Counted from the first letter of the stretch, positions 22,101 through 25,100 are shown. The stretch: 64,000 bases of DNA from Verrucomicrobiota bacterium (GCA_039815375.1 JBCBZJ010000005.1:32001-96000); one strand, 5' to 3'. Made by a program: the numbers.

Positions 22101-25100
22101 TTTGATTTGCAAAAAGCACTCGCTGCTCGGGAAAAGCCCGGCATGCCCGGGCCGGGGCAAGTTGCTGCACGGATTGCGTATTGGCGGAGCTGAATGGTCA
22201 TGCGATTTGTGCTACTTGGTCTTTTCCTGTTCGCTTTTACCGCTTGCGCTAAAGACAAGGATGTCGGCTTTCTCGTCGACTGGCTGCTGGAGGATGAAGA
22301 ACGGCTGGAAGATGTTCGCTTCGCCGATGTCGTTGCAGCGGTTTCGGGTAAAAGTGTTTTTGCCGTAAATCCGGAGAATGGAGTGGATGCACTGCTCCTA
22401 GCGCAGCTGCAAGATGTTCTGGGTGAGATGCTCCTCACGCTCAACGCGGCCGAGCATCCGGTTCAGAAGGTGGGTCGGGTCAACGAAGTGAGCCGGCACG
22501 TTGAGGACTTTTTACTCAAAGAGCTTGATCTGATTGATGGCCAAAGTTGCGGGATTCCTCCAAATGCGTCGGGTGAGTTGCAACGATCTGGCTATCCCGA
22601 TTTGCGCTTCGAGCACGATGCGAGCGGACGCATCTTTTATCTCGACCCAAAAGTCTACAAGGCCGGCAGCGAAACAAGCAGCTTCCGCACCTTCTATTTC
22701 GAGCCGAAGAAGGAAACCAACAAGATACTCGATGATGCCAGCCACCTTATCATAGGCATCGCGCATTCCGGTAAGGTAGATGGCCTTTGGAAATTTGATT
22801 CCTGGAAAGTTGTTGACCTGATTGACTTCCGCGTCCGGCTGAAAGCCGAGTTTCAGTCGAGTAATCGTGAGCTCTACCGCGAGGATGCGGTGCTCCTGAA
22901 AAGTCAGCTGGAAGAGTAAAATACGCTACAGAGCCAAATTGATATATTTATGTTTTAGCCGTAAATATGGCTAATCCGAAAACGACTCTAAATTTGCGCG
23001 ATGACATCTTGCGGCGAGCTAAAGCCGGGGCAGCACGATGTGTCTAGCCGCTCGCCCGTTACATCGAAGAAGGTCTGGGGCAGCGGCTGCAGAAAGAGGA
23101 AGCATAGCCAGTTGGCACAAGCGATTGGTTAGAGTCACTGCCGAAGGTTTCGAAAGTAAGCGCGATAGAGCTGGAATCAGTTATTGCAGCTGATGACTCC
23201 CGCGAAAGTAACATAGATCGATGGAATTACGAATGCTCCCGTCCCCAGAGCCAGAGTAGGTCGGCGAGGCGGTTGAGGTAGGCAATCAGCTCGGAGCGGA
23301 CGGTGGCTCCGGACTCCTGCAGGGTGACGAGGCCACGTTCACATCGGCGGCAGGTGGTGCGGGCGAGGTCGAAGAAGGCATCGGCGGGTGCGTTGCCCAG
23401 ATAGCTCCAGCCTTTGAAGCCGCCTTCACGAGCCTCGAGTTCGTGAACCAAGTTAGTGAGTGCCTCGACCTTTTTGCTGTCGATTAGCTTGCCATTATAC
23501 TTCTCTGCAAGCTTGGCCTGATCAGCCTCTTCAGTCGAGAGTTCGGACATCATGTAGACCAGCTCTTTCTGAATTTTCAGGATGTTTTTTTGGATGACAT
23601 GATGCGCTGCATGAGCGCGGCAAAGGCCCAATGTCGAGTTAAGCTCGTCGACACGTCCGTAAGTCATAACACGTGGGTGATTCTTGGGCACGCGTTTACC
23701 GAATAGTAGGGCAGTCGTGCCGTCGTCGCCTCGTTTGGTGGAAATGGACATTTTAAGAAGTCAGAAGCTAGGAGTTAGAAGTTAGGCCAATCAAATAGTT
23801 CGAGCACCTCAATAACCAGCCTGATTCTCGAAATCGAAATCAGCGAAGTGGAAATCGGATTCGTCATCGATTTCGGTTTGGATTTTGTATGTTTGTGAGA
23901 CGCAGTTAGTGATCTTCTAGTAAGAGTTGAAGCATCTTCCTGGCAGAGTCAGGGATCACTGTGCCTGGACCGAAGATAGCTTTTGCACCGTACTCGTAGA
24001 GATAATCGTAGTCTTGTTGAGGAATGACACCACCGCAGACGACCATGATATCCTTGCGGCCGAGCTTCTCCAATTCCTCAACAAGTTGTGGGAGCAGGGT
24101 CTTATGACCTGCGGCGAGGGAGGACATCGCAACGACATGGCAGTCATTTTCCACGGCCTGACGGGCGGTCTCTTCAGGAGTTTGGAAGAGCGGGCCGATA
24201 TCGACGTCGTAACCGAGGTCCGCGTATCCGGTGGCAACCACCTTCGCGCCGCGGTCGTGTCCGTCCTGCCCCATTTTTGCGATCATGATACGAGGGCGGC
24301 GGCCCTCTTCTTCTTCAAATCTGGCGATGAGTTCCTTAATGTCGTTCATAGCGTCACTGCTCCCGAATTCCTTGGCGTAGACGCCGGAAATGGAGCGTAT
24401 GTTGGCCTTGTAACGACCGACCACCTTTTCGACGGCGTTAGAGATTTCACCGAGGGTCGCGCGTTTTGATGCTGCGTCAACCGCAAGCGCAAGCAGGTTG
24501 CCTCTGCCGGTCTTGGTCGCTTCGGTGATGGCTTTGAGCGCCGTCTTTACGGCTGTATTGTCGCGACCGGTCTTGAGCTCTTTGAGGCGTGCGACCTGAG
24601 ACTCGCGGACAGCGGTGTTGTCAATGTCGAGAATTTCAAGCGGGTCCTCCTTTTCGAGGCGGTATTTATTGAGGCCGACGATGGTTTCTTTGCCGGAGTC
24701 GATCCTTGCCTGACGACGTGCGGCGGCTTCCTCGATGCGAAGCTTTGGAATGCCTTCCTCAATCGCTTTGGTCATGCCGCCATAGCCTTCACACTCCTCG
24801 ATGTGTCCCCAGGCCTTGTGCATGAGCTCGTGGGTAAGGGCTTCAACATAGTAGCTGCCTCCCCATGGATCGATGAAGCGGCACATGCCGGTCTCTTCCT
24901 GAATAAAGAGTTGTGTGTTCCGTGCGATACGTGCTGAGAAGTCAGTCGGTAGGGCGATCGCTTCGTCAAGCGCGTTGGTGTGGAGCGACTGGGTATGTCC
25001 GCAGGCAGAGGCCATCGCTTCAATTGCTGTGCGAGTGACGTTGTTGAAGGGATCCTGCTCGGTGAGGGACCATCCGGATGTCTGCGAATGAGTTCGGAGT

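Follow-up and report, generated by a model that had tools for sequence, protein, structure and literature searches.

Results

A solitary MjaV-type nuclease gene

The window, by which we mean the whole 64,000-nucleotide stretch analyzed from the genome of a Verrucomicrobiota bacterium (GCA_039815375.1), contains a solitary gene whose product is homologous to the type II restriction nuclease R.MjaV; we refer to this protein and its relatives as family A (Table 1). The first base of its ORF follows directly after the argH stop, and the locus lacks the linked methylase of a type II restriction-modification system. Among the flanking sequences covered (~1.5 kb at 30 family loci, 5 kb at 18 named loci), none held a recognized methylase, and the single exception with a linked methylase among the distant family A hits was G428. 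The neighbors of the gene are housekeeping genes that vary between genera, and no partner gene is shared in this family or in family B, described below. Farther downstream (window 23906-30392), ORFs whose translations resemble a methylmalonyl-CoA mutase, an epimerase and a carboxyltransferase are unrelated to the finding.

Table 1. Features of the family A locus (positions in the window) and locations of family B and its relatives
Feature	Position	Strand	Remarks
Family A gene, MjaV-family (PF27324) PD-(D/E)XK type II restriction-nuclease homolog	22194..22919	+	241 aa; 239 from second Met
Predicted export signal, residues 1-18, lipobox-like F-T-A-C at end	22194..22247	+	Rule-based call; lipoprotein model weak, E 0.034
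Conserved R95-V-N97-E98; E98 likely the helical catalytic acid, judged from the fold	22476..22487	+	Nearly invariant in 80-row alignment A1
PD-(D/E)XK catalytic motif G133-Y-P-D136 ... D151-P-K153	22590..22652	+	Motif scan and alignment
argH (argininosuccinate lyase)	20799..22193	+	Abuts the gene upstream; neighbor varies among relatives
PilT-like type II/IV secretion ATPase ORF	19301..20761	+	Two genes upstream; not a conserved neighbor
Cobalamin adenosyltransferase	23227..23751	-	Convergent downstream neighbor
Family B protein P0299	L133:13786-14472 (G365:C15); relatives L240-L257		Leader ending V-A-A
Signal-less family B relatives, T4-like cyanophages (GC 495)	L260:19998-20606, L261:19998-20597, L262, L263		Solitary

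The family A protein matched the PADLOC REase_II model PDLC03511 (E 3e-19), which matches only Methanocaldococcus jannaschii among 14 control genomes. Precomputed Pfam annotation places PF27324, named MjaV in the Atlas, on all 120 close hits listed, and the Atlas clusters of the family are 100% MjaV (score 0.97); by profile, the protein belongs to the MjaV family. A local Pfam search assigned no family to the enzyme of either family A or family B, and a PDB sequence search with the family A protein gave no match. Its AF2 model (pLDDT 92.6) was most similar to SwaI (Z 10.8, rmsd 3.6, 148 aligned) and EcoRV (Z 8.7, rmsd 3.4, 145 aligned). All 121 close proteins, a count in which the query protein itself appears twice, have the GYPD..D-x-K motif. 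E98, P135-D136 and K153 show little or no variation across 80 diverse members; an EcoRV-like fold and an intact E...PD...(D/E)xK set together place the protein among the EcoRV-like PD-(D/E)XK enzymes. A check for PabI gave no Pfam hit on the family A protein, and the structure matches listed were EcoRV-like, which alone does not exclude a PabI fold. The initial annotation, which described an R.MjaV homolog with a SwaI/EcoRV-like fold and a conserved motif, alone behind argH with no methylase beside it, was thus borne out. Given its family and the genome signature reported below, the protein may be a type IIP-like enzyme that cleaves GTAC. Close hits carried the source names Coraliomargarita, Lentimonas, Puniceicoccaceae and Opitutales, and family A had no plasmid match and no phage match. 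Two leader-bearing homologs without the PD and D-x-K residues (P0238, P0239) are probably exported, catalytically dead versions.

The putative export leader

The leader of the window protein, MVMRFVLLGLFLFAFTAC, closes with a lipobox-like stretch. By a hydrophobicity rule, used for these calls rather than a signal-peptide predictor, a hydrophobic leader is present in 112 of 121 close family A proteins and, in a second count, in 101 of 105 scorable homologs (14 were unscorable), in agreement with the export-type N terminus first proposed. Because a strict lipobox occurs in only 8/105 close homologs, most of the family looks to carry cleaved Sec signals. We suggest that the window protein is exported via Sec, possibly as a lipoprotein. 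In a quick, midpoint-rooted tree of 86 family A cores, with leader state assigned by rule, the window protein fell in a clade of 61 rows (SH-aLRT 95), 59 of them with leaders. Nine further leader-bearing rows were placed among leaderless ones, and the starred branches force at least three changes of leader state; the leader was likely gained repeatedly.

GTAC depletion in the host genome

As the initial annotation had stated, GTAC is the most avoided 4-mer of this genome, with a rho of 0.17 (2634 observed versus 15131 expected, both strands); the second lowest is CTAG (0.64). Other words mildly avoided genome-wide, besides CTAG, are CCWGG (0.71) and CGATCG (0.67). Simple C-to-T decay is not indicated as the cause of the GTAC loss, with GTAT/ATAC (1.12) being the least raised of the end-substitution neighbors. 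The depletion varies by region, with a GTAC rho of 0.14 for the window and 0.94 for the 23S-5S region. Some low-GC islands have values of 0.4-0.77, which implies that GTAC-rich foreign DNA does enter and that any barrier is leaky. Lower-GC regions with a rho of 0.46-0.65 (C11:305000-335000, C41:30000-64493, C53 and C29) are likely recent acquisitions, and GTAC density can be used to date islands in these genomes.

Family A carriers are GTAC poor

The initial annotation had tied carriage of the gene to GTAC loss using 8-40 kb samples. In their place we used whole-genome counts of GTACCG over a control (the same pattern read backwards), a ratio of one hexamer to one control that shifts with composition; it is 217/2182 = 0.10 in the genome of the window. 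The link persisted at this scale. The family A protein was matched in 39 of 101 genomes of the taxonomic family, and the 30 intact carriers had a median ratio of 0.117 (range 0.001-0.33, 28 below 0.2) versus 0.434 in the 62 genomes without a match, 7 of which were below 0.2. A sample of 401 genomes of the phylum held 19 real matches (G437 was dropped as a chance match), and carriers outside the family ranged from 2/2658 (G324), 3/2756 (G448) and 13/3051 (G244) at the low end to 0.19-0.21 (G379, G171, G312) at the high end. Given that kin are not independent, we relied on comparisons inside genera and not on p-values. In g22, g29, g37 and g15, congeneric species with and without one of these nuclease genes differ 100-fold; within g15, G058 stands at 3/3346 versus a range up to 0.75.

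Seven broken or partial family A copies had a median ratio of 0.10, and two more copies interrupted by stops had ratios of 0.024 and 0.033. Broken copies with in-frame stops or frameshifts in still GTAC-poor genomes were seen at L015 and L028 and in G040, G054, G081 and, for the family B nuclease described below, G431; at L028, a transposase adjoins the truncation. Among GTAC-poor genomes without a family A match were G060 (0.033), G008 (0.08) and G068 (0.13), of which G008 was also negative for family B, G060 was negative for the PDLC03460 model, and G068 was searched with the family A query only. G399 (0.023), G408 (0.036) and G206 (0.095) likewise had no match in the searches run, as was also the case for G356 and G393, which together with G060, G008, G068, G399 and G408 span ratios of 0.02-0.13. 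Such genomes may reflect recent loss, an assembly gap or a third enzyme family. The PDLC03460 model matched 0/5 unexplained low-GTAC genomes, a search in which no positive control matched, and the PabI model PF09522 matched 0/5 purged genomes, which is uninformative given that no positive control matched there either.

A second nuclease family with a predicted signal peptide in GTAC-purged genomes

Many genomes of family f3, in the same order, are near zero GTAC without a family A match, and the family A profile found 0/5 in purged non-carriers. One f3 genome, G365, has a single GTAC in the 2.22 Mb read (~three quarters of the genome) versus ~2550 expected. Its leader-bearing proteins without a relative in the window's genome numbered 269, of which 79 were scanned (475 soluble leaderless ones were left out), and 1 of the 79 hit a type II nuclease model, PDLC03460 REase_II (E 8e-11). 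The near-absence of GTAC was predictive here, in that it led to an unannotated nuclease family, family B, that is present in cyanophages as well. The top structural matches of the family B protein were all modest (NhoI Z 6.6, DpnI 6.3, MutH 6.3, PvuII 6.0); profile and fold agree in placing it among type II restriction nucleases. It has no detectable relation to family A, given an hhalign probability of 2.9% over 18 columns, and PF27324 is on none of 120 family B hits. There were 1521 homologs at E <= 0.001, with source names on hits including Opitutaceae, Opitutus and Lacunisphaera, and no plasmid match. The leader is hydrophobic in all 98 of the 120 proteins that could be scored, and it mostly ends in A-x-A, V-x-A or G-x-A; the flanks of the 21 family B loci showed no methylase motif.

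Family B was found in 16 of 35 f3 genomes, with a median ratio of 0.0035 and a maximum of 0.052; the 18 f3 non-carriers had a median of 0.36, and the remaining f3 genome, G244, carries family A. Outside f3, G212 (0.003) has family B, G431 (0.031) a broken copy and G129 (0.20) a distant one; G452 was dropped as a chance match. The unannotated family tracks near-total GTAC loss in f3 and in two f15 genomes. All 18 of the 401 phylum genomes below 0.02 carry family A (4) or family B (14), and no genome of the 401 matched both. The objection, raised at the outset, that some non-carriers are also GTAC poor is largely answered by family B outside the family of the window's genome, although several such genomes are still unmatched.

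Signal-less relatives of family B were present in 28 records of cyanophage-type viruses. Four cyanophages that carry them had GTACTG/control counts of 23/82, 0/78, 27/68 and 0/93, versus 75/83, 56/68, 102/71 and 75/69 in four chosen phages without a relative. The association with GTAC recurs in phages, among them the sister phages P-HM1 and P-HM2, and these counts lend independent support to GTAC as the site cut by family B. The two cyanophage carrier regions examined also avoid other words, and CCGG is wholly absent from them. The cyanophage protein is possibly a host-DNA-degrading nuclease.

We considered that GTAC may have been lost for some other reason and that purged genomes tolerate and collect these genes. 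Such a historical or phylogenetic coincidence would account for the low ratios that persist around broken and partial copies and in the unmatched genomes, and for the additional methylase and nuclease-like pair hosted by G365. It is hard to reconcile with the 100-fold differences inside four genera and with the recurrence of the link in phages, and we regard it as very improbable.

Orphan methylases and the degree of purging

The genome of the window does encode an MjaV-type methylase, as the initial annotation had reported (C11:3395-4294; PDLC03295, E 2e-81). This orphan gene (L001:3395-4294, G000:C11) lies 45 bp downstream of a 5S rRNA gene and converges on the rRNA operon, in which 12 GTAC sites remain. 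The genome also encodes a D12-class methylase (C59) and a type III Mod (C11). Close homologs of the MjaV-type methylase occurred in only 3/101 family genomes, all of them carriers (0.10, 0.157 and 0.125), and a relative of those three without it, G034, has a ratio of 0.005. Across the phylum it was found in 7/381 genomes, of which 4 are carriers and 3 belong to carriers' families, and the three distant copies examined were unlinked orphans.

The initial claim that most carriers lack an MjaV-type methylase was right as to its rarity. There is, however, a second methylase family, PDLC03325: in a chosen set of 12 genomes, 6 of the 7 high-GTAC carriers had it, and the 4 low-GTAC genomes and the single non-carrier did not. 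This family stands directly upstream of the family A gene in G428 and is a candidate of unproven specificity. M.RsaI, an m4C GTAC methylase, is of similar size. In a chosen, nonrandom set of 19 family A carriers tested for both methylase families, the 13 with a candidate had a median ratio of 0.172 and the 6 without either had 0.010; this comparison excludes G071 (ratio 0.11), in which the second methylase is frameshifted. Exceptions were G043, with PDLC03325 at 0.03, and G042, with neither methylase at 0.19. Because carriers with a candidate methylase keep more GTAC, it seems that cells behind the export step are safeguarded in either of two ways, by methylation or by purging. The original proposal, in which export and the loss of sites protect the cell in place of methylation, was not borne out in that form: many carriers hold an unlinked methylase, MjaV-type or of the second family, and methylase-free status holds mainly for strongly purged carriers.

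A further exception, the purged G365, holds an intact PDLC03325 methylase, directly upstream of which lies a signal-less nuclease-like ORF with a GYPD..ELK motif (L153:3404-5230, G365:C2); this ORF aligns only weakly to family A (probability 26.5%). An internally deleted second methylase copy is at L137.

Neither candidate methylase was found in the near-complete purged genomes G058, G324 and G345, with the proviso that one could lie in an assembly gap or in the masked stretches (8-24 kb); the methylase of this genome lies beside an rRNA operon. In G058 (2 contigs, 3/3346; 24 kb masked), five Pfam methylase families yielded a type III Mod, one C5 methylase and nothing else. Three purged single-contig family B genomes without a strong MjaV-type methylase retain an intact 16S GTAC; one of them, G345, is negative for both candidates, and chromosomal sites thus persist where no GTAC-type methylase was found.

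These data bear on whether family A might belong to ordinary restriction-modification with an unlinked methylase, in which case the leader would be a membrane anchor with the nuclease domain inside the cell, the GTAC loss would be restriction avoidance, and methylase-free carriers would reflect assembly or search gaps. The 13 of 19 carriers with a candidate methylase, and the methylase of this genome, are consistent with such a system, and GTAC avoidance with conventional systems, including those of the PabI type, is already known in Helicobacter and Campylobacter (passages in PMC10273834 and PMC2588503). Three observations argue against it, namely the near-complete purged genomes without either candidate, the cleavage-type A-x-A ends of family B leaders, and the 16S GTAC that persists in single-contig purged genomes. 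We therefore consider an ordinary, cytoplasmic system to be improbable.

Discussion

Our findings lead us to favor, by a slight lean, a model in which an exported GTAC nuclease cuts DNA crossing the envelope, with leakage that puts a cost on each chromosomal site and is answered by an orphan methylase or by purging. An active EcoRV/SwaI-like nuclease would cut unmethylated GTAC, and the family A enzyme, in this genome possibly a lipoprotein, would travel through Sec to the periplasm or envelope, where it may cut double-stranded DNA in transit, ahead of the cytoplasm, and so filter incoming DNA. Export would remove the need for a linked methylase, but imperfectly, such that each chromosomal GTAC remains a small risk. 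Lineages may respond in one of two ways: an unlinked orphan methylase would let some GTAC remain, or purging would become near complete and spare rRNA. Family B, despite having no detectable sequence relation, would have reached the same arrangement.

A different route to the same pattern is molecular drive, in effect a reversed uptake sequence. Here the exported enzyme would spare the chromosome and cut kin DNA that is taken up, GTAC-free alleles would spread, and a methylase would relax the drive. Purging without a methylase, more sites with one, and tolerated rRNA sites are all predicted by this process, and the window has a PilT-like gene while one ComEC-like hit, by motif only, was seen in this genome. 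However, competence of the carriers is an assumption, 1 of ~2550 expected sites left in 2.22 Mb of G365 demands very frequent recombination, and cyanophages with signal-less family B relatives purge GTAC as well, which fits direct cutting of their own DNA. We judge molecular drive to be unlikely.

We also considered that the enzyme is an outward weapon or a scavenger, released by vesicles or lysis against GTAC-rich neighbors or environmental DNA, with purging or methylation as producer immunity. Cleavable-type leaders in both families and variable neighbors with no partner gene in common are compatible with release. A related idea has been raised for PabI enzymes, which are said to lack secretion features (passages in PMC10273834). 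Nevertheless, no gene for delivery, receptor binding or immunity is linked to the enzyme, which also lacks an additional domain, and a four-base-specific cutter would make a poor nutrient nuclease. For family A, we hold a released weapon or scavenger to be doubtful.

Extending our preferred model of an exported, leaky GTAC nuclease beyond family A is more tentative, and we put it just short of an even chance. Verrucomicrobia may run methylase-optional restriction at the envelope. At least two unrelated type II nuclease families would have gained export signals, repeatedly in the case of family A, and settled on GTAC as a common target; one would stand in for the other from lineage to lineage, and GTAC would be driven near extinction in the host. 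The textbook view of type II restriction is of a cytoplasmic nuclease that a linked methylase holds in check. If the model is true, exported methylase-optional restriction would add compartment and site loss as means of self/non-self discrimination, and an extreme genome signature (1 GTAC in 2.22 Mb) would have a named cause. These genomes would then offer a test of word avoidance from self-toxicity versus biased gene flow, and near-absence of a palindrome would become a searchable signature of exported restriction enzymes. In practical terms, transforming these bacteria may require GTAC-free or GTAC-methylated DNA.

Neither signal-peptide restriction enzymes nor a loss of GTAC in this phylum turned up in our literature search, whose scope excluded subscription papers, REBASE and preprint supplements; restriction activity in the periplasm may have been reported earlier. 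The terms 'periplasm', 'signal peptide', 'signal sequence' and 'secret' are nowhere in the available text of a 2025 review of restriction biology (PMC12707154), and neither GTAC nor these taxa appear in that of PMC4687349. The methylome of C. akajimensis, a strain not among the family A hits listed, has one type I motif and no GTAC motif in the available passages of PMC4752239; it was given no weight in our argument.

Family A shares its EcoRV-like fold with orthodox type IIP enzymes, including HincII (Z 6.7) in addition to SwaI and EcoRV, at 10-18% identity. SwaI, EcoRV and HincII are cytoplasmic and methylase-paired, and their sites are other than GTAC. EndA, Dns and NucT are nonspecific periplasmic or secreted DNases that limit DNA entry; they differ from family A in having no sequence specificity and no genomic word signature. 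Family B can be compared with the hypothetical proteins of the T4-like cyanophage gene cluster GC 495, which are 26-30% identical to the mature protein and whose hosts are GTAC poor, although they are unannotated, phage encoded and have no leader. The PabI and HpyAXII restriction glycosylases resemble family A in their GTAC target, long-term host GTAC avoidance and limits on DNA uptake (passages in PMC10273834 and PMC2588503), yet they have a different fold and chemistry, and it is their methylase that persists while the nuclease decays.

R.MjaV/M.MjaV of Methanocaldococcus jannaschii (GTAC, m4C) has its Pfam and PADLOC family in common with family A; the model that recognizes the methylase of our genome also matches M. 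jannaschii. M.MjaV is listed as an m4C methylase active on GtaC, with MjaV as the cognate enzyme (passages in PMC4752239 and PMC11033074). Unlike this pair, family A has an export leader, no linked methylase and a host GTAC depletion that reaches near-total, and the methylase is absent from those carriers that are purged most strongly. The family A enzyme, a member of the MjaV sequence family, probably works like a type IIP restriction enzyme, yet stands apart from a type II system in having no linked methylase.
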